Part shown: positions 208 through 41,040 of the stretch, one piece after another
Layout of the letters: every line of letters starts with the position of its first letter
Position numbering within the stretch: the stretch's first letter is position 1
Assembly (NCBI GenBank): GCA_018648325.1
Contig: JABGRK010000016.1
Span: 9,338 to 73,337, forward strand
Reading direction: 5' to 3'
Length of the DNA: 64,000 nucleotides
From: Chloroflexota bacterium
GTDB lineage: Bacteria > Chloroflexota > Dehalococcoidia > JABGRK01
Made by a program: the position numbers and the translations under genes
Notes under the pieces: model-generated
Seen by the model: the letters and a program-made list of their open reading frames with translations, nothing else
What the model was told of the DNA's origin: nothing
Database searches by the model: none

Positions 208-1272
208 TTGCAAAAGCGCAGGTATTTCATTCGCAACATGAATGCGGGCACCTTTCTGGAGATATTTATGGTCTCCGCAGTGGCCTCCATACTTGCCATT
301 CGCGCCTATCTGGTAATTGCAGATTACCCTCAACTTGGAAACAGTGATCTGCACATCGCGCATATGTTATGGGGCGGCGTATTCATGCTGGTGGGCATCA
401 TTTCGCTATCCATGTTCCTGGGCAAATCGGCGCAGTATGTCGGAGTCATATGCGGCGGTATTGGATTCGGCACATTCATCGACGAGGTGGGCAAGTTCAT
501 AACCCAAGACAATGACTATTTCTATCAGCCGTCTGTTTCCATTATATACGTCACCTTCATGGTTATTTTCCTGGCTGCGCGCAATATTCAGACGCGGGCT
601 CGTTACTCACGCCTTGAGTACCTGATGAACGCCATACACGAGCTTGAGGAAGTGGCACAATCCGATCTGGACAAAGAGGAAAAGGAAAAGGTTGCGGGGT
701 ATCTGGCAGAGTGCGATCAAAATGACCCGCTTGTATCTGAGCTTAAAGGCGCTCTTTCAAAGATAGAGCTTGTGCCTGTGCCGGAGCAGGGATACTACGT
801 GCGTCTCAGGACTCGCCTTGCCACGTTTTATCGAAATATTGCCACAACTAACTGGTTTAAGTGGGTGATAATAGCCTTTTTTGGGGCTCAGGTGGCATTT
901 AATCTTTTCTATGTGTTTGTACTGGTGACCCTTAAGTTACTTAGCTGGGATGTCTTAAATGTGGGCATTATTGAAAGCTTGGCCGGTGAACTGGAAAAGA
1001 TAACGTTTTCAGATTATGCTTACCTTACATCATCGTTGTTTGCCGCAGGTCTTGCCCTGTGGGGGCTTACACTGTTTATCAAATCACGCCTGAGAGCGTT
1101 TCAAATGTTTGAGCGATCAGTTATGGTATCGCTCTTTTTAACACAGGTGTTCATTTTTTTTCAGGCGCAGTTCTGGGGCCTTGCAGGGCTAATAATCTAT
1201 CTGCTGGTATATGTGGCGCTACGGTATATAATAGCTAGAGAAAGACTTGCCGGAGTAGATAAGCAAGTCTGA
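208..1272 (+). CDS. polytopic integral membrane protein, function unknown
   Basis: 354-aa ORF with several hydrophobic helices at both ends and an acidic soluble middle. It has a TTG start; an alternative ATG lies at 238. It ends with TGA. Confidence 0.6.
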   Translation: MQKRRYFIRNMNAGTFLEIFMVSAVASILAIRAYLVIADYPQLGNSDLHIAHMLWGGVFMLVGIISLSMFLGKSAQYVGVICGGIGFGTFIDEVGKFITQDNDYFYQPSVSIIYVTFMVIFLAARNIQTRARYSRLEYLMNAIHELEEVAQSDLDKEEKEKVAGYLAECDQNDPLVSELKGALSKIELVPVPEQGYYVRLRTRLATFYRNIATTNWFKWVIIAFFGAQVAFNLFYVFVLVTLKLLSWDVLNVGIIESLAGELEKITFSDYAYLTSSLFAAGLALWGLTLFIKSRLRAFQMFERSVMVSLFLTQVFIFFQAQFWGLAGLIIYLLVYVALRYIIARERLAGVDKQV

Positions 1273-2331: not shown

Positions 2332-3183
2332 ATGAGTACGAAAGTAAAAAGACAAATAATCAAGATAGATGAGGAAAAATGCACCGGTTGCGGCGTCTGT
2401 GTTCCCGGTTGTGCCGAGGGCGCACTACAGATAATCGATGGTAAAGCAAAACTGGTATCAGAGATATACTGCGATGGGCTTGGTGCCTGCCTGGGTGATT
2501 GTCCTGAAGACGCCCTGTCTATTGAGGATCGCGAAGCAGATGAGTTTGACGAGGAGGCGGTTGAGCATCATTTGCATCAGCAACAGCATCCACATGATGA
2601 ACATCAGCACGACAGTCTGGCCTGCGGTTGCCCGTCCAGTTCGGTACAGGAGTTCGCCAAGCAGGAAGAAACACTGGCCTGTGGTTGCCCGTCCAGCTCA
2701 GTGCAGCAGTTCGAACAGCCTCAGGAGACGTTGGCCTGTGGATGCCCTTCAACCACGATAACCGAGTTCGATAAATGTGGTTTGAGTGGTGCAGTAGAAC
2801 CTGCTGCGCGTGCCAAGTCAGAACTTGCACACTGGCCGGTACAGCTTACGCTGGTTCCTCCGACCGCACCGTTCTTGCAGGGTTCTGATTTGTTGCTGGC
2901 TGCACATTGTGTAGCGTTCAGCTATTCTAATTTCCATCAGGACTTGCTAAAAGGTCACACTCTTTTGATCGCATGTCCCAAGCTTGATGATTTCGATGCG
3001 CATCTTGCCAAACTGATCAGTGTTATAAAAGCTTCGAATCTTAAGAGCCTGACGGTGGCCCGTATGGAAGTGCCGTGCTGCTCCGGTCTGGTTCATATGG
3101 CTCAAGAGGCGATACGTTTATCAGGTAAAGATGTTGCCTTCAAAGAGGTTGTTGTCGGGGTCAGAGGCGAGATCGAAAGTTAG
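2332..3183 (+). CDS. 4Fe-4S dicluster-domain protein with His-rich tract, CGCP repeats and a Cys-containing C-terminal domain
   Basis: CTGCGVCVPGC and CDGLGACLGDCP ferredoxin motifs, then HHLHQQQHPHDEHQHD, then 3 x LACGCPSS. The C-terminal domain reads HWPVQL..AAHCVAF..IACPKLDD..MEVPCCSGL. Preceded by an AAGGAGG RBS. Confidence 0.8.
   Translation: MSTKVKRQIIKIDEEKCTGCGVCVPGCAEGALQIIDGKAKLVSEIYCDGLGACLGDCPEDALSIEDREADEFDEEAVEHHLHQQQHPHDEHQHDSLACGCPSSSVQEFAKQEETLACGCPSSSVQQFEQPQETLACGCPSTTITEFDKCGLSGAVEPAARAKSELAHWPVQLTLVPPTAPFLQGSDLLLAAHCVAFSYSNFHQDLLKGHTLLIACPKLDDFDAHLAKLISVIKASNLKSLTVARMEVPCCSGLVHMAQEAIRLSGKDVAFKEVVVGVRGEIES
2617..2775 (+). repeat. in-frame tandem repeat, 57-bp unit, about 2.8 copies
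   Basis: Units at 2617..2673 and 2674..2730, plus a partial unit at 2731..2775. Each begins (c/t)tggcctg(c/t)gg(t/a)tgccc and encodes LACGCPSSSVQEFAKQEET-like 19-mers. Confidence 0.8.
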
Positions 3184-4619
3184 GCTTTTTTAGTTTTGAC
3201 GTTACCGGCCAGAAAACTGATGATGATGCCGGCAATGCAAACAAAAGCTACTATTAATGTTACATAATGGAAGCTGTCTATTACGGCAGCTTCCTTTGTT
3301 ATTCCTTGAGAAATGAAGAGGTTTTTCTTGAGGGCATAGATACTGCTGCTAATGGCCAGTCCCATGGTTAGCCCCAGCCCCCGCGATGTGGAGAGCATGG
3401 CTGATGCCGTACCGCGTTTGGTCGTCGGCACAGACCCCATTATCAGGCTGTTGTTAGGTGATTCAAATAATCCTATGCTCACCCCTAAAATGGTCAGTAT
3501 CAGTATTATTGTACCAATATGTGAAGTCTCATTAAGAGTGCTCATTAGCAGTAGGGAAACACCAAGTACTGTAAATCCGATTGTAGTTAGACCGCGGGTA
3601 CCTATTGTATCCGATAGCAGCCCGGTAAAAGGCGATATTACAAGCATGGCAATGGGGATGGTAATCTGGAGCATCCCCGATTTGAAGACTGAATAGCCCA
3701 ATCCTTCTTGGAAGAAGAAAGACAAAAGAAATATCCCCGCTATCCTGGTAAGAAAGCTGATAAACAGGCTCAGATTGGCCATACTAAAAGGTCGTGAGCG
3801 GAAAAGAGAAAGGTCCAGCAGGGGCTGTCTCACCTTTCGCTCAATAACGATAAACAGTGGTATTAATACTGCCGCGGTTATCAGGCAGCCAAGTACAAAC
3901 AAAGAAGTCCAGCCACGACCTCCCGATTGATTTAGTCCCAGCAGTAGTGCAAACATTCCCACAAAAAGGGCGACAGCTCCCCACTTATCAAAGCCGTGAT
4001 GCGCCTCTTGGGCTTTTTGTTCTGCAAGCAACCTGAATGCCACTGCTGTGACCAGAAGTACAATAGGTAATCGCATATAGAAAATCGACTGCCATCCAAA
4101 CGTGTCCACCAGGAAACCACCAAGCGCCGGGCCAATGGCTAGCCCTGCTCCTACCGATCCCACGTAGAATCCCATGGCTTTGCCGCGCTCTTTATCTGGA
4201 AAAACGTTGGTGATGATAGCCGGTCCCACAGCTATCATCATACCGGCGCCAACAGCCTGCACTACCCGAAACGAAATGAGCATAGGCATGCTTGTGGCAA
4301 GCGAGTTCAGCCCCAGCCCCAGTGCCGTGATGATCATGCCGATCATGTATACCCGCTTGCGGCCTATCCTGTCACCTATTTTACCGAAGGTGAGGGTCAG
4401 TCCAGCCACTGTGAGCATATAGGCAAGGTATACCCACACAGAGATCGTCTCGTTAACCGAAAACTGTTCAGTCAACTTTGGGATGGCAACATTTACAATG
4501 CTGTTGTCCATGGTGCTGGTAAATGTGCCTATGCAGATAACGGCGAGTGCCCACCATTTGTAGGAACTTATGCCTGCCTTATTTATTAAAGGGGATAGGT
4601 CACCGCCGCTTTTGGCCAT
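3180..4619 (-). CDS. MFS transporter, DHA2/EmrB-like (about 14 TM segments)
   Basis: 479 aa, hydrophobic throughout. MFS motif A-like GKIGDRIGRKRV after TM2. Its stop overlaps the convergent Fe-S gene by 4 nt. Confidence 0.85.
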   Translation of the reverse strand: MAKSGGDLSPLINKAGISSYKWWALAVICIGTFTSTMDNSIVNVAIPKLTEQFSVNETISVWVYLAYMLTVAGLTLTFGKIGDRIGRKRVYMIGMIITALGLGLNSLATSMPMLISFRVVQAVGAGMMIAVGPAIITNVFPDKERGKAMGFYVGSVGAGLAIGPALGGFLVDTFGWQSIFYMRLPIVLLVTAVAFRLLAEQKAQEAHHGFDKWGAVALFVGMFALLLGLNQSGGRGWTSLFVLGCLITAAVLIPLFIVIERKVRQPLLDLSLFRSRPFSMANLSLFISFLTRIAGIFLLSFFFQEGLGYSVFKSGMLQITIPIAMLVISPFTGLLSDTIGTRGLTTIGFTVLGVSLLLMSTLNETSHIGTIILILTILGVSIGLFESPNNSLIMGSVPTTKRGTASAMLSTSRGLGLTMGLAISSSIYALKKNLFISQGITKEAAVIDSFHYVTLIVAFVCIAGIIISFLAGNVKTKKA

Positions 4620-5287
4620 TATTCTGGTTTCTTCTCTTCTGCTTCTTTTTCTTTTGCTTTTATTTCGTCCTGCTGGGCTTTAGTTATATAATCGCGCTGC
4701 CAGCGGTGAATCTCGTCCAAAGCCGGTGGCGAAACGCTGAATACCTCTACATCCTTGGGGAACTGCACCCTGTGGCCCTCTCGCATGAAAATTGCGCCGA
4801 CCTCATCAGCCTTGAGTGTTTCGTCTACTACCTGGGCAATTTTTTCGTAGCGTTTTGTGGCAACCTCCATGTAGAACTCAGATACGGTTTTGCCCACCTT
4901 CTGGCTGATAAAACCGGCCATAAGGCACCTTTCCCAGTCCATGGACTCCTCAACCATGTCCTTATCCTCGGTTATCTCGAGTGCGGCACCGCCGTCGCAT
5001 TTCTGTTTTACGATCTTGTGGCAGGCCGGGTTCAGCTTTTCGATTATAGCCAGCCCTTCTTCACCGGCCATGGCAATCGACTCGTGATAGACGTGGTTTA
5101 TACTACCTATCTTGGTTTCCAGATTAGATATTTGACTGGCTACCTGATCCCAGAATTTAGTAAACATTTTCAGGTATTCATCAGGAGCGCTCTCGCCGTA
5201 GTATATTAATGGAACCAGCAGCAGTTTTCTTTTACCCGATACACTGCCAGCCTCTAGTTTTTCTATTTTACCCAGTTTTTCTGCCAT
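4619..5287 (-). CDS. conserved-looking soluble protein of unknown function
   Basis: 222 aa with an AAGGAG RBS before the ATG and a Lys/Glu-rich tail. Its stop overlaps the MFS start by 1 nt at 4619. The antisense 220-aa ORF has non-protein-like composition. Confidence 0.6.
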   Translation of the reverse strand: MAEKLGKIEKLEAGSVSGKRKLLLVPLIYYGESAPDEYLKMFTKFWDQVASQISNLETKIGSINHVYHESIAMAGEEGLAIIEKLNPACHKIVKQKCDGGAALEITEDKDMVEESMDWERCLMAGFISQKVGKTVSEFYMEVATKRYEKIAQVVDETLKADEVGAIFMREGHRVQFPKDVEVFSVSPPALDEIHRWQRDYITKAQQDEIKAKEKEAEEKKPE

Positions 5288-5498
5288 TTATTTCTCCTTT
5301 TTCAAGCGTGGTATTGCTTTGGTGCTAATACACAGGCTATTTGATATTAATTCGTAGTTGTTAGTATACCATAATTGAGTGTAACGAAGTGTCAGGCGAA
5401 TTTGAGTGGAGATAAAACCAGCTTGCCTCTCATCAAAGAAGAGCGAAATGATGCATGGTTGAGTTATTTTGGTTGACGCGTTTGCTAAAAGCGCAGAT

Positions 5499-5684
5499 CT
5501 AGATTGTCTTGGGTTTTAGTGCTTTTACGATGGCCGATAGCAGGATGCAGCTGGCCGCAACTGCGGCTATTATATAAACTATGGTCATGCTGTAGTCTAC
5601 CCATATCCCTATTAACAGGCCAACGGCCCAGATGAGAGCGGCTCAGGCTACAGCCCCGAATATGCCTTTGACTATTTCCTTCAT
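5499..5684 (-). pseudogene. small membrane-protein ORF interrupted by an in-frame TGA
   Basis: AGGAGG lies 6 nt before the ATG at 5684. The frame reads MKEIVKGIFGAVA-[TGA 5643..5645]-AALIWAVGLLIGIWVDYSMTIVYIIAAVAASCILLSAIVKALKPKTI, then TAG at 5499..5501. Confidence 0.35.
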
Positions 5685-5784
5685 GTTAAACCTCCTCTTT
5701 CTGCGCAAGGACGTAAAATCGTCTATTTGGCCATACTATCGCGACAATACTTGGTTGTCAAATGCTTGTTTTTTGATCCGGCTG

Positions 5785-5824
5785 ATGTCATTTGATGACA
5801 TTTGGCAGGCTTGTGCTTTATAAT
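5785..5824 (+). promoter_or_regulatory. candidate promoter with operator palindrome upstream of ccdA
   Basis: ATGTCAT-TTG-ATGACAT perfect palindrome at 5785..5801 overlaps a -35-like ATGACA (5795..5800). After an 18-nt spacer comes TATAAT at 5819..5824. Confidence 0.4.
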
Positions 5825-5853
5825 AAAAGTGTAATGAGTTGCAAAGGAAGTAA

Positions 5854-6588
5854 ATGATAGAGTCATTTGTGGAAAATTTGGGAGGGCTGTTACCCTTCGG
5901 TTTTTCCTTTACTGCCGGAATGGTAACCACCGTAACCCCGTGTGCCGTAGCCATGCTGCCGGCCTATATAGCGCTGTACCTGGGATCACAGGAAAAGGGG
6001 TATTGGGCTGAGTCGGTATATAAACGCATTGCCCGGGCACTGATCTTGAGTATAGTGGTGACACTGGCCTTTGTGCTGTTATTTGGAGCTGCCGGCGCGG
6101 TGCTTACAGCAGGTGGGGACAGCCTGAACTCTATTATACCCTGGGTGGCCGTTGTTATCGGGGTCATTCTTGTACTCATGGGCATTTTCTTTCTTTTTGG
6201 CGGGCATCTTTATATCAATTTTACCGCCCGGCTGGCCAACCGCATCGGTGCCGGTAAAGCCGTGGGCGTTAAGGGCTTCTTTATTTTTGGTATTGCCTAT
6301 GCGCTGGCCGCACTCAGCTGTAATTTGCCCGTTTTTTTGGTCGTAGTAGTTACTTCCATAACAGAAAAGGGATATGCTTCGGGTTTGCTTCAGTTTGTTT
6401 ATTATGCGTTGGGCATGGGTTTTATCATGATGCTCATTACACTTGCCTCGGCACTCTTTAAAGAGACTGCCAACCGCTGGTTACGACGTGTGGTTCCGGT
6501 AGTGGCCCGGCTAAACGGTCTGCTTCTTATATTGGCAGGAGTTTACATAATATATTATTGGTTTGTCAAGGGTGATATTCTGGGCTAA
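5854..6588 (+). CDS. ccdA: cytochrome c biogenesis / thiol:disulfide electron-transfer membrane protein CcdA (DsbD-core family)
   Basis: 244 aa with about 6 TM segments. The two hallmark membrane Cys are present (TPCAVAMLPAY and ALSCNLPVF). Confidence 0.85.
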   Translation: MIESFVENLGGLLPFGFSFTAGMVTTVTPCAVAMLPAYIALYLGSQEKGYWAESVYKRIARALILSIVVTLAFVLLFGAAGAVLTAGGDSLNSIIPWVAVVIGVILVLMGIFFLFGGHLYINFTARLANRIGAGKAVGVKGFFIFGIAYALAALSCNLPVFLVVVVTSITEKGYASGLLQFVYYALGMGFIMMLITLASALFKETANRWLRRVVPVVARLNGLLLILAGVYIIYYWFVKGDILG

Positions 6589-6624
6589 CCATTTGTATTT
6601 AGTAACGATCAGTAGGAGGATGGA

Positions 6625-7173
6625 ATGAAGAGAAATCTGCTTTTACATAAAGGTATATACATTGGGCTGGTCATCATATTAATGATTGGTTTAACGTTCG
6701 GAGCCGGTTGCTCCTCCGGGCAGGACGAAATCGTTGTTAGCGGCGAGATTGGGATTGAAGTTGGCGATACGGCGCCGGACTTCACTTTAGCTGATCTGGA
6801 TGGTAATGCGGTGACCTTGAGTGCTTTTAGAGGCAAGGCCGTATTTATTACTTTCTGGAAAAGTACTTGACCCGCATGCCGCTCTGAGATGCAGAGCATT
6901 GAAGCGATATACCAGAAATACAAAGATCAGGATGTAGTTGTATTAGGAATTGATTTGTTTGAGCGTGCGGATACCGTACGCAATTTTGTTAGAGTGCATA
7001 ACGATTATAACTGGACTTTCTTACTAGATAGCACGGGCCATGTATCATATGTGTATCAAGTCAGTATTCCCAAGAGCTTTTTTATAGACTCAACCGGTGT
7101 AATCAGAGCGATTCATGGTGTCACGGCTATGTCTTTTAGTACAATGGAAACATTACTGGCTAAAGCGAGGTAG
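6625..7173 (+). CDS. TlpA/ResA-like thioredoxin-fold lipoprotein with in-frame TGA at the CxxC position (candidate selenoprotein, UPAC motif)
   Basis: ORFs 6625..6870 and 6889..7173 share one frame. Read-through gives GDTAPDFTLADLDGNAVTLSAFRGKAVFITFWKST-U-PACRSEMQ..VVVLGID..FLLDSTG..SFFIDSTGVIR. AGGAGG RBS, signal peptide and a Cys lipobox-like FGAGC are present. Confidence 0.7.
6881..6897 (+). promoter_or_regulatory. candidate SECIS-like hairpin
   Basis: GCUCUG-AGAUG-CAGAGC: 6-bp stem and 5-nt loop containing G and U. It begins 11 nt after the UGA at 6868..6870. Confidence 0.4.
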
Positions 7174-7199
7174 AAAAACAGTCGCTGGTTATAGTATCC

Positions 7200-8138
7200 T
7201 TATAGCCCTCTGAGGTATTCTGGGCGCAGCAGGGACGGGTCCTGTTTCTCTATGATAGATGCCAGTTCTTTAATCATACGCTCTTTTTCCTGTGGCAGCT
7301 TCCCTCGTATAGAGAAGTAGTTTGAGGCATGCATGGAGCTGAAAAAGCAGTCTGAGAAGTTAGATTGCTCTACTATTGCCTTGAGTTCCACAAGCGAGTC
7401 CATCGGGCTTATCAGTTCGAATTTGCCGTCCTGCCAGTCGTTGTACAGTGGCGTTCCCGGGGTTATGGTCATGGTCAGCGCCGCAGCGAACTCAGGGTCT
7501 ATCTCGCTTAAGACGCGTGCTGTTGCCTCAACGTGTTTGGCCCGGTCCTTATTGCCACCGAGTCCCAGTATCACCGTGAGTGATTGCCTTATACCTGCTG
7601 CCTTGGTTTTTTTACCTGCCTCAATGATCTGATTTGAAGTCACTCCTTTGCCTATTTGCTGTAATATTTCATCGTCTCCGCTTTCAACACCCATGTAAAC
7701 AAGGCTCAGCCTGAGTTTCTTAAGTTTCTTAAGTTCATCTGCGCTTTTACGCAGTACGTCCTGCGCCGTACCGTAGGTTGCTACTTGCTCAATGAAAGGT
7801 AGTTTGCTCCTGATGTACTCAAGTACATATTTCAGGCGTTCGAAAGGGTAGACCAGCGCGTCGCCGTCTTGTAAAAAGATCTTTTTACCGTCCCACCAGT
7901 GATCAATTACGTGATAAATAATATTGGGGATACCCGGTAGTACGGCCCTGTCCTTTACATAAAGTGCAACAGCATCTATTTCGGCTTTGACCTCATCGAC
8001 ATCGCGCATTTGGAGTTTGCAGCCGTAGTAATTGCAAAAGGTGCAGGTGTTGTTGGAGCAGCCGGAAGTAAGCGGCAGAAAGTAACTGGCACTCTCGCTG
8101 GGAGGGCGAATAATCTCAGGTCTAATGAATTGTGCCAT
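7200..8138 (-). CDS. radical SAM domain protein
   Basis: 312 aa. Cys cluster C27-x4-C32-x2-C35 (CSNNTCTFC) followed by Y. GG-type SAM motif context (LQDGDAL) and a TIM-barrel-like pattern. Confidence 0.8.
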   Translation of the reverse strand: MAQFIRPEIIRPPSESASYFLPLTSGCSNNTCTFCNYYGCKLQMRDVDEVKAEIDAVALYVKDRAVLPGIPNIIYHVIDHWWDGKKIFLQDGDALVYPFERLKYVLEYIRSKLPFIEQVATYGTAQDVLRKSADELKKLKKLRLSLVYMGVESGDDEILQQIGKGVTSNQIIEAGKKTKAAGIRQSLTVILGLGGNKDRAKHVEATARVLSEIDPEFAAALTMTITPGTPLYNDWQDGKFELISPMDSLVELKAIVEQSNFSDCFFSSMHASNYFSIRGKLPQEKERMIKELASIIEKQDPSLLRPEYLRGL

Positions 8139-19496: not shown

Positions 19497-20948
19497 CTAA
19501 TCTCCTTTAATTTCCATCAGCATCTTTTCAGACGAGAACCAGTACTCTCTGGACTCACCTATAAGGTACATGGAACCGGTTATTAACACAAGCTCATCCG
19601 GTCCTGCCTTTGATACAGCTGTTTTGATGGCATCCTCCACATTATTGCTTTTGATAACCTCAAGCGACGGGTTTATACGGTTTATTACCTTTGCCAGATT
19701 GCTTGCGGGCAGGGATGGTTTACCCAAGACATTGACCTGAGTGGCTATAACCCGGCTGGCGATGGGTATGAGCTCTGCAAGGATGGCATTTACGTCTTTA
19801 AAGGCTAGTATACCGGTTATTACGGTAACAGCCTTGTGCGGACCTGTTTTAAGGCTGCTTATCAGCGCGCGCATTTTTTGCGGATTGTGGGCACTGTCCA
19901 GCATGACCTGTGGTGCTTGCTGCACTGTTTCCATACGTCCCGGCATTTTCCAGCTCTCCAGCGCCGTCCTGATATTTTCCTCACTCACAGGCACACCATA
20001 TTTTTTATTTAGCACTTCGGCTGCCTTTACGGCCACCGCCGCGTTAACAGCGTTAAATGTGCCGGACTGGGTGATGTTCACCTTATCATACGTTTTAAAC
20101 GGTGTACGTATATCCATCGTGATACCAGTGTGATCTGACTCATGTATTATGTAGCTGAAGTCACGTTCCATCTTATATAGTTTGGCATTGTTTTTGACAG
20201 CCTCTTTCACGAAGATATCGAGTGTTTTGGGGTTGGTTTCTGACGTGATCACCGGCTGGTCACGTTTGATAATGCCTGCCTTGTGTTTTGCTATTTCAGC
20301 CAGTGATGTGCCAAGCTGTGGCGTATGTTCCATCGCGATATTAGTGATTATTGCCAGTTTGGATTGCACTACGTTAGTGGGGTCGTAGCGTCCGCCCAGC
20401 GCAGTCTCAACAACTGCCCAGTTCACGTTGCATTTGGCAAAGTACATATACATCAGGCAGGCCCATGCCTCCTGATAGCGCAGCATCTCGCCTGTTTTTT
20501 TATAGAATGACACAAGTAGTAGCTTGAACTCATCTACCAGCTCAACAAACGCTTGTGGTGATATCATGGCATCGTTAACAACAAGTTTTTCGTTGCACAC
20601 CTGCAGATAGGGAGAAGTGTGAACACCGGTGCGAAGGCCCGCCTGCCTGAGTATTGCGCCGATCATGGTGGCAACCGAGCCTTTGCCGCTAGTACCGGCG
20701 ATGTGAATCACCGAATACTTTTCTTGCGGATTTCCGGCGTGCTCCAGGAAGGCCTTTGTGCGGTTAATCTGGCGCAGGTAGTCCTTGAGGTAATCCGTCT
20801 GGCTCTTAGGGACGAGGTAGTATGACCCGGCCGGATCTGTGATGAGCGAGCGCAGCCAGTCCAGGCGCTGCCAGTAGGCATCCAGCGGGTGCTTCGGCGC
20901 AGGCGGCTGCTCTGATATTATTTCGTCGTTGTTGGTGATTTCTTCCAT
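19497..20948 (-). CDS. folC: folylpolyglutamate synthase / dihydrofolate synthase (Mur-ligase family)
   Basis: P-loop HIAGTSGKGS, Mur-ligase middle and C-terminal domains (DSAHNP). 483 aa with an N-terminal extension. Confidence 0.85.
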   Translation of the reverse strand: MEEITNNDEIISEQPPAPKHPLDAYWQRLDWLRSLITDPAGSYYLVPKSQTDYLKDYLRQINRTKAFLEHAGNPQEKYSVIHIAGTSGKGSVATMIGAILRQAGLRTGVHTSPYLQVCNEKLVVNDAMISPQAFVELVDEFKLLLVSFYKKTGEMLRYQEAWACLMYMYFAKCNVNWAVVETALGGRYDPTNVVQSKLAIITNIAMEHTPQLGTSLAEIAKHKAGIIKRDQPVITSETNPKTLDIFVKEAVKNNAKLYKMERDFSYIIHESDHTGITMDIRTPFKTYDKVNITQSGTFNAVNAAVAVKAAEVLNKKYGVPVSEENIRTALESWKMPGRMETVQQAPQVMLDSAHNPQKMRALISSLKTGPHKAVTVITGILAFKDVNAILAELIPIASRVIATQVNVLGKPSLPASNLAKVINRINPSLEVIKSNNVEDAIKTAVSKAGPDELVLITGSMYLIGESREYWFSSEKMLMEIKGD

Positions 20949-21730
20949 GCTACAGTGGCTTCATTATAGCATGTGGTGGTAGTTGCGGGAGGGGGATGGC
21001 TTTCAGACTTTCGATTATGGTTGTTTTTTGTAGCACCTTTTCTTTGTGCCTCTTTGACAGCACCGGTATTAATAATGTCTTCTAATTGTTTTTTCCTATT
21101 TTCTTTGTTAATGTACCAGTCTTGAATTAGCAGCTCGATTAGTTTGATTAATTTTTCGGATTCGTCAGGATCAACATCCACTATCAGGTTTATATCTTTT
21201 TCCATATGAGCACCTATATTACCAATCTTTCTTACTGCACTGATAGCTTGCCATGTGGTTGTATCGACTTTGTTTTCAATAGCGTTGATTTCGTCAACGA
21301 GCCTTCCCGGTTTGATACCCCAAAAATCACGGATGATTCCTTGTAAACACCTGCGTGATAGTGTTGCTGATGCCCTAGGGCTAAGGTCTTTAATCAAGTA
21401 AGCTTCTTTATAGTCGATTAAAATTGGTTCTGGTATGTAGCTTGGGAAGGAACGTGCTTTGGAAGGAGGCACTAAATCCCAATGATAAAGTTTTTTACCT
21501 ATTTCCTCCCATCGCTTTATATAATCGCCCAACACACGACTTTCATGCAGATCAGCTACAACTGCGACCTTCTGGCATTTTGGATTTGGGCAGACGATAA
21601 ACATAGTGTCTAGAATTTGCCGTCCGTCGGGATTATTAATATCTAATACGGAACGACTTGTTCTAATCCGCTCGTTTGTAATTGTTGTAGGTCTATCACA
21701 ATAAGGGCATGTCCAACTAAATTCTGGCAT
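20918..21730 (-). CDS. zinc-ribbon + DUF4145-like domain protein
   Basis: CPYCD..(37)..CPNPKC N-terminal ribbon. The C-terminal helical region (ATLSRRCLQGIIRDF..IENKV..AISAVRKIGNIGAHM) resembles DUF4145. Start placed at ATG 21730 (GGAGA RBS) because the ORF-track ATG 21787 lies inside the -10 box. Confidence 0.7.
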   Translation of the reverse strand: MPEFSWTCPYCDRPTTITNERIRTSRSVLDINNPDGRQILDTMFIVCPNPKCQKVAVVADLHESRVLGDYIKRWEEIGKKLYHWDLVPPSKARSFPSYIPEPILIDYKEAYLIKDLSPRASATLSRRCLQGIIRDFWGIKPGRLVDEINAIENKVDTTTWQAISAVRKIGNIGAHMEKDINLIVDVDPDESEKLIKLIELLIQDWYINKENRKKQLEDIINTGAVKEAQRKGATKNNHNRKSESHPPPATTTTCYNEATVAWKKSPTTTK

Positions 21731-21785
21731 TGCGATTTCTCCAAACTTCCCCAAGTGTGTTTTTATATATCCTGTAAGCGCCGTC

Positions 21786-21815
21786 ATTATACTGTGGGAA
21801 GCTGTGGCAAGTCAA
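21786..21815 (-). promoter_or_regulatory. near-consensus sigma70 promoter
   Basis: Minus strand: TTGACT (21810..21815), 18 nt, TATAAT (21786..21791). Confidence 0.5.
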
Positions 21816-30500: not shown

Positions 30501-31289
30501 TCAGTCTACAAGTTCTCCCCCGGTTTTGTTTGCATCTAACCACTGACGTACGGTGCCATCTGCATCGATGGTATAAAAATAGGTTGTTTGAGCAAGGTCA
30601 TCAGGTATGTAGTTGCTTAATATGGTGGCTCCACCATCTGCAGTATCGTCTTGTTGGTACAACACGTATCCGATTTTATCACCGGGAAAGGTGTAAGCGG
30701 TGGTAGTTCGATCAATCTCCTTATAAATGCCAGTCGAGGCAACATCGGGGAATGCAGTCATATCATTGGTGGGAATCGGATCAACTGGGTTGGGGATTCT
30801 TCCAATCTGATTCTCGGTCATCATGTTTGCAAGTGCATTAACTACCTCAGCTTTTTCTCTGTTTCTTTCTCGTGTTATAGTTTCAGTCGAAGCTGACAGC
30901 AGCCATTGACCACTAACTTGAGTTAAATGAAAATCCATTTCTATGGGATATTCCCATGTACTATCATCAGTAAATGTCAAAGATATATCGTAGGTACAAG
31001 AAACTTTGGCATCTGTTTCATCCTCTGATTCCAAAACTATGTTACGATTTGTGATTGAATATGATTTGGTGTCGTCAAAGATCATTTCCAATTTCTCAAC
31101 ACGCTCAGTACTGGTCTCATGGTTATAGTCCTCCGTTTGGTAGCTAACCACTACCTGAGTATTTTGAGACGACATTGCGTTTAAATATGCGTTTACAGTT
31201 CCTGTTGGGGTTGCTGTAGGCGAGCCGCATGAGACTGTAATGAGGATTAACAGCATCATTGTAGTTAAGACTAACCTTATTAGTTTCAC
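30501..31289 (-). CDS. lipoprotein (NTF2/DUF4878-like N-terminal half)
   Basis: Signal peptide with lipobox LITVSC. GTVNAYLNAMSSQN resembles small NTF2-like lipoproteins. It lies 22 nt upstream of the zinc-ribbon membrane gene. Confidence 0.65.
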   Translation of the reverse strand: MKLIRLVLTTMMLLILITVSCGSPTATPTGTVNAYLNAMSSQNTQVVVSYQTEDYNHETSTERVEKLEMIFDDTKSYSITNRNIVLESEDETDAKVSCTYDISLTFTDDSTWEYPIEMDFHLTQVSGQWLLSASTETITRERNREKAEVVNALANMMTENQIGRIPNPVDPIPTNDMTAFPDVASTGIYKEIDRTTTAYTFPGDKIGYVLYQQDDTADGGATILSNYIPDDLAQTTYFYTIDADGTVRQWLDANKTGGELVD

Positions 31290-38435: not shown

Positions 38436-39959
38436 ATGAAGGCGATTCTTAGCGTATCCAATAAAGCCGGACTGGTAGATTTTGCTAAAGGACTGGAAAA
38501 ATTAAACGTTGATATTTACAGCACCGGTGGTACCAAAAAGGCTTTGTCAGATGCTGGTGTTAAGGTGCACAGTGTTTCGGACCTCACTGGTTTCCCGGAA
38601 ATACTGGATGGCCGTGTGAAAACATTGCATCCCATGGTGCATGGTGGAATTCTGGCCAGACGCGATAAACCCGACCATATGAAGGAACTTGATAGTAATA
38701 AGATAGACCCTATTGATATGGTGGTGGTCAATCTTTATCCGTTTGTGCAGACCGTGGCCAAGCCCGATGTCACACTTGCCGATGCGCTGGAAAACATAGA
38801 TATTGGCGGGCCTACCATGATTCGGGCGTCTGCCAAGAATCACCCCAGCGTACTGGTTGTAGTAGACCCGTCCGATTATGATAATGTGCTTGAACTGCTG
38901 GGTAAGGGCGAAGTGCCTGCCGATGAGCGTAAGAAGCTGGCACAGAAGGCATATCAGCACACCGCCACCTATGACACGGCCATCTCTCAGTATCTGTTAG
39001 GTGATGAAAGTTTGCCCGATGACATGACTATTGCGCTTAAGAAGAAATACGATCTGCGTTATGGCGAAAACTCGCACCAGAAGGCAGCGTTTTATGAGGA
39101 ACAGGTTGTTGGTGGAGCCGAGCAGACCGGCATTATTTCCGCCGAGCAATTGTGGGGCAAGGCGCTATCGTTTAACAACATACTTGATGCCGATGCGGCG
39201 TGGAGTACTGCCACAGATTACCCCGACCCTACCGTTTCCGTAGTGAAACATACCAACTCCTGCGGACTGGCCTCACATCCGGTGCTGGTTGAAGCCTACA
39301 AGCGGGCGTACTCCGGTGATACGGTTTCCGCCTTTGGCGGCATATGTGCCATCAATCGCAAGGTTGATCTGGCCACCGCACAGGAGATATACAAGAACTT
39401 CTACGAGATAGTAATTGCACCTGCTTATAATGACGATGCACTTGAGTATCTCAAGAAGAAGAAGGATCTTCGCATCCTGCTGGCCAAACCGTCAGACTTC
39501 AAGGGATATGACTTTCGCCGTGTTGAGGGCGGAATGCTGGTACAGGATGCTGATATTTATCCTGAGGATAAGCTTGAGATCACAACGGCGACCAAGCGCC
39601 AGCCCACCGAGCAGGAGTTAAAGGATTTGATTTTCGCCTTCAGGGCAGTAAAACATATTAAGTCCAACGCTATCGTGTTTGCCAAAGAGCAGACCTTGCT
39701 GGGCATGGGTGCCGGACAGCCCAACCGCGTTATCAGCGTTGAGTTATCGTTCAAGCTGTCAGGTGATGCGGCCAAGGGAGCTGTGATGGCTTCAGACGCC
39801 TTCTTCCCGTTCCCGGATTGTGTTGATCTTGCACATAACGCGGGAATCACCGCCATTATCCAGCCGGGCGGATCGATGAATGACAAGGCTTCTATTGAGG
39901 CTGCCGATAAGTATGGTATGGCAATGGTATTTACCGGAATCAGGCATTTCAGGCACTAG
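38436..39959 (+). CDS. purH: bifunctional AICAR transformylase / IMP cyclohydrolase
   Basis: MGS-like N-terminus (ILSVSNKAGL, GRVKTLHP) and transformylase part (VKHIKSNAIV, GGSMND). Confidence 0.95.
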   Translation: MKAILSVSNKAGLVDFAKGLEKLNVDIYSTGGTKKALSDAGVKVHSVSDLTGFPEILDGRVKTLHPMVHGGILARRDKPDHMKELDSNKIDPIDMVVVNLYPFVQTVAKPDVTLADALENIDIGGPTMIRASAKNHPSVLVVVDPSDYDNVLELLGKGEVPADERKKLAQKAYQHTATYDTAISQYLLGDESLPDDMTIALKKKYDLRYGENSHQKAAFYEEQVVGGAEQTGIISAEQLWGKALSFNNILDADAAWSTATDYPDPTVSVVKHTNSCGLASHPVLVEAYKRAYSGDTVSAFGGICAINRKVDLATAQEIYKNFYEIVIAPAYNDDALEYLKKKKDLRILLAKPSDFKGYDFRRVEGGMLVQDADIYPEDKLEITTATKRQPTEQELKDLIFAFRAVKHIKSNAIVFAKEQTLLGMGAGQPNRVISVELSFKLSGDAAKGAVMASDAFFPFPDCVDLAHNAGITAIIQPGGSMNDKASIEAADKYGMAMVFTGIRHFRH

Positions 39960-39975
39960 GACTAAAAGGAGTCAC

Positions 39976-41040
39976 ATGTCAGGTATTGCTGATCTTGACA
40001 CCATTATGGATAGTTTAGGGGCGGAGGAAAAAGCGATTTTTCTCCGCCTTTTCCACGTACATTCGACGGTGGGGCAGATACGTCCTCCTTATACAATGCA
40101 TGATTGGATAAAGAATCAATTTGGCTCTGTCGAACAAACGCTTGAGCAAAAGGTCATCAGAGTCACCAACCTCGTTACATTAGAAGAGTCGTTGTTCAAT
40201 AAACTGCGTGCAGACCGTCCCATATCGGAGGCAGTAAATCACGGTAAGATTGATGTTGGTGATAACGATCCATTTCATGATCCACTGGCAAATACCCCTG
40301 AGGATGTCTTTGGTCGTATTAAGGGCAAGTATTGCGTTACCGCCAGTAATGTGGCCAAATATGATGGACTGCATGGCGTAATTGTCTTCGACGAAGCCGA
40401 CCCACTTAAGTTTACTGCCGGGCAGGTGGTCGACTATATAGATACCGGCACCAAATGGGCCAAGCGAGCCCACGAAGTTGACGCGGATGCCAAATACTAC
40501 TTTTTCATGTGGAATTGCCTGGCAAAAGCGGGGGCTTCTCTTGTGCACGGGCATACGCAGGTGGCACTGAGCCGGCATATGCACTACGCCAAAATAGAGC
40601 GCTTACGCCGCGCCGCGCTGGCCTACGAGTCTGAGCATGGCTCTGATTACTTTGACGATTTGTACAAAGCGCATGAGTCTGTAGGTTGTGGCATTGAGCG
40701 CGATGACGTTCGTATTCTTTCTCATCTGACGCCGGTAAAGGAAAAAGAGGTTGTGCTGATGGCTCCAACGCTTAACGACGCTCTTAAGTCAGCAGTGTAT
40801 ACGGCCTTAAGTTGCCTGCGGGATAATCTTGGTACAAGTTCTTTTAATCTGGTCATTCAGATGCCGCCTATTGCTGAGGTGGATGAGGACTGGAGTTGTT
40901 TTCCTGTGATGGTACGCATCGTCGACCGTGGTAATCCGGACAGTAAGGTATCTGATATGGGGGCTATGGAGCTATACGGGGCCAGCGTTATAACCAGTGA
41001 TCCTTTTGAGGTGGCACGTGCGCTGAAGGATTGTTTTTAG
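39976..41040 (+). CDS. GalT/HIT-superfamily-like putative nucleotidyltransferase
   Basis: FFMWNCLAKAGASLVHGHTQV resembles the H-x-H-x-Q nucleotidyl-transfer motif of GalT-like enzymes. AAAGGAG RBS before ATG 39976. Confidence 0.55.
   Translation: MSGIADLDTIMDSLGAEEKAIFLRLFHVHSTVGQIRPPYTMHDWIKNQFGSVEQTLEQKVIRVTNLVTLEESLFNKLRADRPISEAVNHGKIDVGDNDPFHDPLANTPEDVFGRIKGKYCVTASNVAKYDGLHGVIVFDEADPLKFTAGQVVDYIDTGTKWAKRAHEVDADAKYYFFMWNCLAKAGASLVHGHTQVALSRHMHYAKIERLRRAALAYESEHGSDYFDDLYKAHESVGCGIERDDVRILSHLTPVKEKEVVLMAPTLNDALKSAVYTALSCLRDNLGTSSFNLVIQMPPIAEVDEDWSCFPVMVRIVDRGNPDSKVSDMGAMELYGASVITSDPFEVARALKDCF

Follow-up and report, generated by a model that had tools for sequence, protein, structure and literature searches.

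A ccdA-linked TlpA/ResA-like gene with an in-frame TGA in a Dehalococcoidia bacterium: prediction of a UxxC selenoprotein

Results and Discussion

Analysis of a 64,000-nucleotide (nt) stretch of contig JABGRK010000016.1 (positions 9,338 to 73,337; hereafter the window) of a Chloroflexota bacterium of the class Dehalococcoidia pointed to a gene, located directly downstream of ccdA, that is interrupted by one in-frame TGA. Two open reading frames (ORFs), 6625..6870 (81 amino acids, aa) and 6889..7173 (94 aa), lie in the same frame and are separated only by this TGA and the six sense codons PACRSE (6871–6888). They very probably constitute a single gene, here called tlpA(U), in which the UGA is decoded as selenocysteine (Sec) under the direction of an RNA hairpin located immediately behind it. 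Orthologous TGAs, a Sec/Cys ortholog pair, the conservation of the hairpin and purifying selection support the interpretation as a UxxC selenoprotein, which had been put forward in a first-pass annotation made from the letters of the window. The arrangement of the two ORFs given there was borne out by the sequence and its translation, which runs ...GKAVFITFWKST up to the stop codon and PACRSEMQSIE... beyond it. The coordinates of the features are collected in Table 1.

Fold family and redox motif

When the product was fused across the junction, with U written as C, it matched the Pfam domains AhpC-TSA (1.9e-26, 92.9 bits, cut-off 26) and Redoxin (3e-23, 82.7 bits, cut-off 26.6), both above the gathering score; Thioredoxin_8 was also among the Pfam domains matched. 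Alignment of the product with 18 homologs of the Cys type put the TGA at the first Cys of W-C-P-P-C in all 18, and the second Cys was present. The redox motif reads FWKST-U-PA-C, with Sec in place of the first Cys and W81 replaced by T. The Pfam matches and the alignment upheld the earlier proposal that read-through yields one TlpA/ResA/redoxin-type sequence with the TGA at the first Cys of CxxC. The closest solved structures were those of ResA (4nmu_A, 2.1e-18; 1st9_A, 1.9e-16), and the fold was assigned from these sequence matches. ResA was also the top NCBIfam match (PRK03147, 5.4e-28). The family-invariant residues 3′ of the TGA were all kept (C85, E88, M89, Y99, G108, D135, Y144 and P149, among others). 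By these matches, the predicted product belongs to the TlpA-like thioredoxin-fold family (AhpC-TSA/Redoxin; cd02966).

Narrower assignments were rejected. Against the model for ResA orthologs (NCBIfam NF002854/PRK03147) the product scored 98.1 bits, with a cut-off of 170. A peroxiredoxin (Prx/BCP) was dismissed because the PxxxTxxC motif is absent (the corresponding stretch is FITFWKSTU), and the profile scores were 48.5 against a cut-off of 140 for BCP (PRK09437) and 25 against 270 for PrxU. The WAxxUGC TlpA/ResA-like selenoprotein (NF041054) was likewise discarded, at 43.8 bits against a cut-off of 300, the motif being U-P-A-C and not U-G-C.

The surroundings of the active site showed some variation. 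Almost all homologs have a Trp before the active-site Cys (ATW-C); this residue is a Thr in the window (codons 6859–6867) and in two of the orthologous TGA loci described below, L082 and L106 (KST-U or AST-U); the remaining four Sec orthologs keep the Trp (A[ST]W-U). Substitutions in the window protein also affect N76 and P84, both near-invariant.

Conservation of the TGA across assemblies and species

The TGA is genuine in the sequence, being found in nine identical assemblies and in six diverged orthologs. Nine metagenome contigs from separate assemblies agreed with the window at every nucleotide of positions 5287–7200 (100% identity); they derived from different runs and assemblers (ENA, JGI and Logan). 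The view that the stop is an artifact of sequencing or assembly has in its favor only the general prior for metagenome assemblies; set against the agreement of these contigs and the TGA of the diverged orthologs, its probability is negligible. As a separate observation, the lack of any nucleotide variation over 1.9 kb in nine assemblies indicates either a highly clonal population or one sample series.

A DNA pattern, F-W-x3-TGA-[P/G/A/R]-x-C-[R/S]-x-E-M, was scanned over a metagenome collection, the loci of which carry the prefix L. This gave 74 loci (L031–L104). In blastp, 69 of them matched the fused protein, each with TGA in the first-Cys column; the other five gave no such match, and L032, with a very short match, was left out too. 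L082 (69.8% identity over residues 2–182) and L042 (58.4% identity) were close orthologs. When the C-terminal fragment was used as a protein query, all matches were themselves fragments (92–98 aa), i.e., more split gene calls, on contigs L106–L109. The first-pass annotation had proposed recording whether orthologs carry Cys or TGA at this column: six orthologous loci from other species (L042, L082, L106, L107, L108 and L109) carry TGA at the same codon, not TGY. Together with the window they form a set of seven TGA loci with pairwise amino acid identities of 65–89% over the mature domain. As in the window, the TGA gene is preceded by a DsbD_TM gene in L042, L107 and L109, and a convergent gene for a 312-aa radical S-adenosylmethionine (radical-SAM) protein lies downstream in the window, L082, L107, L108 and L109, hence in at least five of the seven loci.

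The closest Cys ortholog, P0001 (the protein encoded at L105; 63% identity), has TGC at the Sec codon and the same clade-specific stretches (CSSGQ.EI... and DNDYNWTFLLD). Judged by this alignment, the window gene and P0001 are a classical Sec/Cys ortholog pair. Scanning the GTDB representative genomes, a set outside which the source species lies, with the fused protein gave only distant Cys homologs.

Selection on the reading frame

Purifying selection is strong, and in frame, past the TGA. As calculated by the Nei-Gojobori method, the ratio of nonsynonymous (dN) to synonymous (dS) substitution rates downstream of the TGA was 0.15 for the window vs. L082 (dN 0.115, dS 0.745) and 0.18 for the window vs. 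L042 (dN 0.234, dS 1.308). These values were indistinguishable from that of the mature part upstream of the TGA (0.18 for the window vs. L082; dN 0.217, dS 1.198). None of the seven copies contained an extra stop or a frameshift. Conservation in frame extended to the six codons that link the TGA to the ATG, including R-S-E and the invariant second Cys, which is encoded by TGC or TGT in all seven loci.

These results bear on the possibility that tlpA(U) is a pseudogene, in which a TGY-to-TGA nonsense mutation in a Cys-type tlpA left two decaying remnants. Only one base change is needed to turn a Cys TGC into TGA, three near-invariant residues are altered in the window protein (N76T, W81T and P84A), and no Sec machinery was seen in the window. 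On the other hand, the TGA is held at the same codon in seven loci whose amino acid identities (65–89%) and nearly saturated synonymous sites exclude one recent clone, the downstream dN/dS is low, the frame is intact in 7/7 and the synteny with ccdA is conserved. A simple nonsense mutation had been named beforehand as the outcome that would contradict a selenoprotein; it is excluded by the dN/dS of approximately 0.15–0.18 downstream together with the shared TGA, and we accord it a minute residual probability.

Alternatively, translation could stop at the UGA and restart at ATG 6889, so that two polypeptides of 81 and 94 aa would act separately or associate. Gene callers yield exactly these two ORFs, and an ATG is present 18 nt past the stop in all orthologs. 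However, the Met encoded by this ATG is the one that is invariant in the E-M motif of the family and is found in Cys homologs too; the ATG has no Shine-Dalgarno sequence upstream and lies in the loop of the hairpin described below. Under this scheme, the six conserved in-frame codons, comprising the essential second Cys and R-S-E, would go untranslated, and the cut between β1 and the CxxC helix would deprive the thioredoxin fold of its entire redox motif; the match to ResA (4nmu_A), moreover, continues across the junction. Because of the dN/dS values, the intact frame, the conserved intervening codons and the identity of the ATG as the family Met, a pseudogene is excluded, and stop-and-restart is very unlikely.

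A SECIS-like hairpin behind the UGA

In Escherichia coli fdhF, the minimal Sec insertion sequence (SECIS) is a 17-nt upper stem-loop located about 11 nt past the UGA. In tlpA(U), a SECIS-like hairpin with a stem of 6 base pairs (bp) follows the UGA after a spacer of 10 nt; its minimum free energy (MFE) is −7.7 kcal/mol for the 17-mer and −11.8 kcal/mol in context. The bSECISearch model for bacterial SECIS (bSECIS) elements specifies an apical loop of 3–9 nt, a stem of 4–16 bp, a G in the first two loop positions, a distance from UGA to loop of 16–37 nt and an MFE of ≤ −7.5 kcal/mol (PMC13188914, Fig. 2). The corresponding values in the window were 5 nt, 6 bp, a G at position 2, 16 nt and −7.7 kcal/mol, which places the hairpin at the lower limit of the model for spacing and energy. 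It resembles the bSECIS consensus in being a coding-region stem-loop just past the UGA with a G at loop position 2, and differs from it in its loop (A-G-A-U-G vs. the commoner G-[G/U]), in its spacing at the lower limit and in having no bulged U. The hairpin had been noted in the first-pass annotation for its SECIS-like position 3′ of the UGA, and this observation held up well: the element agrees with the published bSECIS model in every term, is kept in all seven TGA loci and is absent in Cys homologs.

The sequence GCUCUG-AGAUG-CAGAG[C/U] was found after a 10-nt spacer in 7/7 TGA loci, with a single C/U wobble. Within the hairpin, four of the five degenerate codons for conserved residues were frozen, including a six-fold degenerate Arg that is always CGC and a Ser that is always UCU, and the fifth was only AGC or AGU, so that a G-C or G-U pair is preserved. 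Among the 58 degenerate codons for conserved residues that lie outside the hairpin, only 16 were frozen, and synonymous sites elsewhere in the seven loci were near saturation. Since the letters of stem and loop are frozen while synonymous sites elsewhere approach saturation, the comparison indicates selection on the hairpin at the RNA level.

In the register of the hairpin, the Cys ortholog has CGU GCC GAA AUG CCU GAC and cannot form the stem, and Cys homologs had 1–4 of the 6 possible pairs. Cys forms have R-A-E-M-P-[D/E] and Sec forms R-S-E-M-Q-S, with the Q-S codons (CAG AGC) complementary to the R-S codons (CGC UCU). The switch from Cys to Sec is accompanied by residue changes (P-D/E to Q-S after E-M) that create the SECIS stem, a clear case of a coding sequence reshaped to accommodate a SECIS.

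Hairpins of equal geometry with other stems (GGAAGG/CCUUCC, GGAGGG/CCUUCC, GUGAGG/CCUCAC and GUGCGG/CCGCAC) were present in 21 loci of other TGA-bearing TlpA subfamilies, and in this set four of the six pairs were changed on both sides. A second group of approximately 28 loci had a GGAGAUG-NNN-CAUCUCC hairpin, and others had further hairpins slightly downstream. With at least three hairpin designs following the UGA among the 69 TGA-bearing TlpA/redoxin loci, this family seems to have found a way of placing a SECIS in one conserved R-x-E-M-P coding stretch more than once.

Capacity for Sec decoding and identity of the inserted residue

A reassignment of TGA in the organism was rejected: many ordinary genes of the window, among them leuA, dnaX, degV and ABC transporter genes, end in TGA and align end to end with their families. 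A systematic scan of the window for other TGA-interrupted genes gave none that was credible except the 61-aa ORF 5499..5684 discussed below. The best named relatives of the window DnaX were Chloroflexota/Dehalococcoidia metagenome-assembled genomes (MAGs) at 49–55% identity (closest relatives up to 70%), and the TlpA homologs point to the same groups. According to BSepDB, two Dehalococcoidia MAGs, with 49 and 46 selenoprotein genes, are among the ten most selenoprotein-rich bacteria (PMC13326102), and Sec-containing formate dehydrogenases were reported in marine Dehalococcoidia single-cell genomes (PMC5736913). Because of these selenoprotein-rich MAGs and formate dehydrogenases, Sec use in the lineage of the window organism is plausible, and from this we infer its capacity for Sec decoding.

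Several points weigh against the decoding of this UGA as Sec. No tRNA-Sec was found in the 64-kb window, and no selA, selB or selD among the approximately 35 larger window genes annotated (pur, ilv/leu, thr, dnaX, folC, coaBC and similar); the approximately 10 kb past the window end, covered via L025, also contained no sel genes and encode ribosomal proteins, rimM and lytB. The hairpin alone is short and statistically unremarkable (z of −1.4 over 71 nt and −2.35 over 45 nt), and its significance comes only from the comparison with other loci. Its loop position 3 is an A, where the consensus more often has G or U, and Rfam gave no match, whether the entire window was searched at the gathering cut-off or positions 5400–7300 at E ≤ 10. 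In the set of loci with equal hairpin geometry, 99% of cells were paired vs. 44–69% with the partner slid, a percentage that is partly circular because the set was chosen for pairing and the loop (GAGAUG) was fixed by the search pattern; the compensatory changes are the informative part. Lastly, the nine identical assemblies have sample-series prefixes in common and may represent one population, although they are still separate libraries and assemblies.

The identity of the inserted residue is where a selenium-free read-through has to be considered, in which a near-cognate tRNA for Trp or Cys would be accepted at the UGA with stimulation by the hairpin, giving a W/C-P-A-C product. The conservation of the locus requires read-through, which is compatible with residues other than Sec, and no genes for Sec decoding were seen in the window. 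Yet the UGA is located exactly at the catalytic Cys, a position regularly occupied by Sec in dozens of the catalogued selenoprotein families with a thioredoxin fold. A Trp at the catalytic position would kill the enzyme, and insertion of Cys would be achieved more simply by a TGY codon, as in the sister ortholog. The hairpin, furthermore, fits the position and loop expected of a SECIS element, and Dehalococcoidia include selenoprotein-rich members. We therefore consider read-through with Trp or Cys improbable and retain Sec insertion as the best explanation.

Comparison with known systems and proposed mechanism

ResA of Bacillus subtilis and B. anthracis and TlpA of Bradyrhizobium are CcdA- or DsbD-dependent extracytoplasmic reductases for the maturation of cytochrome c and cytochrome oxidase. 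The window protein resembles ResA (PDB 1ST9, 4NMU) and TlpA in its predicted N-terminal membrane anchor, the FW..W-CxxC-..EMP region and the linkage to ccdA, and differs in having Sec for Cys and in the lack of adjoining resB/resC or ccs genes. Because of the latter, a role in cytochrome c maturation is unsupported by the context.

UxxC selenoproteins with TlpA-like, redoxin or AhpC-TSA domains have already been catalogued, among them the families “Redoxin family protein” (PF08534) and “Prx-like thiol:disulfide oxidoreductase” (PF00578) (PMC13188914, PMC9312934). Set beside the descriptions of the three named families of this type (representatives WP_010940744.1, MGB1650493.1 and HEU0032618.1), the window gene fits their domain and motif definitions. 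It has in common with them the Pfam domains, Sec as the first residue of UxxC and a SECIS immediately downstream in the coding region; the catalogued proteins and the window protein are alike predicted, not biochemically shown. In contrast to the catalogued proteins, the window clade is of a predicted lipoprotein type, linked to ccdA and derived from uncultured Chloroflexota, and has lost the Trp before the active site in three of seven members. The selenoprotein type itself is already known, and nothing in it is unexpected to a selenoprotein specialist.

For the mechanism, we infer Sec insertion at the UGA, export, lipidation, electron donation by CcdA and reduction of a client. tlpA(U) would be co-transcribed with ccdA. 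When the ribosome meets the UGA, SelB-GTP-Sec-tRNA(Sec) would bind the hairpin and Sec would be put in at position 82. The protein would then be exported and tethered to the outer face of the membrane via its N-terminal segment with the lipobox-like C29. Sec would serve as the attacking residue, forming a mixed selenenylsulfide with a client disulfide that is resolved by Cys85, and CcdA would re-reduce the resulting U-x-x-C selenenylsulfide with electrons from cytoplasmic thioredoxin. Such a reduction role is established for the CcdA/ResA and DsbD/TlpA systems. In its reduced form, the TlpA-like protein would reduce the disulfides of extracytoplasmic client proteins. Characterized relatives act on apocytochrome c or similar clients; genes for cytochrome c maturation do not adjoin tlpA(U).

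Gene structure and locus

The statement that ccdA lies directly upstream of the redoxin gene proved correct: the upstream product matches DsbD_TM, its translation contains both conserved Cys (VTPCAV and ALSCNL), and 36 nt separate the end of ccdA from the ATG at 6625. At the N-terminus of the tlpA(U) product, a Cys follows the hydrophobic stretch at the same position in nearly all aligned homologs, with FASGC, FAVSC, FAPGC, FVTGC and FAAGC in the orthologs. These sequence features suggest that the product is probably an extracytoplasmic, membrane-anchored lipoprotein. The expectation that standard gene callers would split the gene was confirmed by public gene calls, which cut it into 81 + 94 aa in 10 of 10 places among the matches listed (exact CcdA search; 13 contigs from ENA, JGI and Logan).

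Table 1. Features of the ccdA-tlpA(U) locus in the window, with positions counted from its first letter.
Feature	Position	Strand	Basis
tlpA(U), single gene for a predicted 182-aa TlpA/ResA-like thioredoxin-fold selenoprotein; UGA is codon 82	6625..7173	+	ORF, domain, alignment and ortholog data
In-frame TGA, proposed Sec codon	6868..6870	+	Column of the N-terminal (attacking) Cys of CxxC
TGC, second (resolving) Cys of U-P-A-C	6877..6879	+	C85 invariant in alignments
SECIS-like hairpin; 6-bp stem GCUCUG (6881–6886)/CAGAGC (6892–6897), 5-nt loop AGAUG (6887–6891)	6881..6897	+	Folding and ortholog comparison
Predicted signal peptide with lipobox-like end ...LTFGAG-C29	6625..6711	+	By-eye reading of the sequence
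Shine-Dalgarno sequence AGGAGG, 5 nt before ATG 6625	6614..6619	+	Sequence inspection
ccdA, 244 aa, membrane thiol-disulfide electron transporter, first cistron	5854..6588	+	Pfam DsbD_TM, 6.9e-13
Sigma-70-like promoter candidate upstream of ccdA, ATGACA-18-TATAAT	5795..5824	+	Consensus match only, 11/12
Small membrane ORF, 61 aa, divergent from ccdA; TGA at codon 14 (5643–5645)	5684..5499	−	ORF and L109 homolog

The 312-aa radical-SAM gene that converges on tlpA(U) occupies 7200–8138 on the minus strand; its resemblance to B12-type radical-SAM methyltransferases and to HemW-like proteins was weak and partial. Five ORFs of the window (208–1272, 4619–5287, 39880–41040, 20918–21787 and 30501–31289; 222–386 aa) had no Pfam or NCBIfam match; the 222-aa protein among them, beside the MFS transporter, is conserved and syntenic in L042. 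In one contig (L016, positions 1–2718), the region corresponding to the left of window position 5287 contains a run of small minus-strand ORFs and a Metallophos gene, with 100% identity to the window rightward of this position. The difference at 5287 resembles the breakpoint of an insertion or rearrangement between strains, perhaps involving a mobile element or a prophage.

The 61-aa ORF that diverges from ccdA also contains an in-frame TGA (MKEIVKGIFGAVA-TGA-AALIWAVGLLIGIWVDYSMTIVYIIAAVAASCILLSAIVKALKPKTI) and is preceded by a strong ribosome binding site (GGAGG, TTTAAC, then ATG). A homolog of 66 aa in L109 (1752–1952, minus strand) has the same position, is 72% identical and has TGA at the same codon. 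As counted by eye from the alignment of the two, 5/5 differences in the 13 codons before the TGA were synonymous, as were the first three after it, and two downstream indels of 6 and 9 nt kept the frame. L042 holds a decayed remnant at approximately 2630–2714 (minus strand), the TGA still included. A hairpin, CUGGGCC-GU[U/G]-GGCCUG, has its loop 18 nt past the UGA and G-U at the start of the loop; with energies of −7.0 and −8.6 kcal/mol it is marginal, and it lacks significance in its sequence context. The small ORF gave no match in Pfam or NCBIfam, and no Cys homolog of it is known. It is predicted to encode a membrane protein of two helices (MKEIVKGIFGAVA-U-AALIWAVGL...), the first of which would carry a single Sec close to its cytoplasmic end. 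That this ORF encodes a second, uncatalogued selenoprotein beside the ccdA-tlpA(U) operon is a tentative and rather doubtful proposal, and with two intact copies (window and L109) it is a lead only. If true, it would represent a new family of small membrane selenoproteins, possibly feeding or regulating the selenol/thiol relay from CcdA to TlpA(U).

Implications

If tlpA(U) is read as proposed, one functional gene is stored publicly as two fragments of 81 and 94 aa, and the finding would correct this annotation. The same mis-split occurs in at least six related species and in dozens of other TGA-bearing TlpA homologs, and the redox inventories of these uncultured Chloroflexota would be wrong at the tlpA(U) locus. 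Additionally, the comparison with P0001 adds a clean, syntenic Sec/Cys ortholog pair, and the predicted lipoprotein would place a selenoprotein on the extracytoplasmic side of the CcdA relay.

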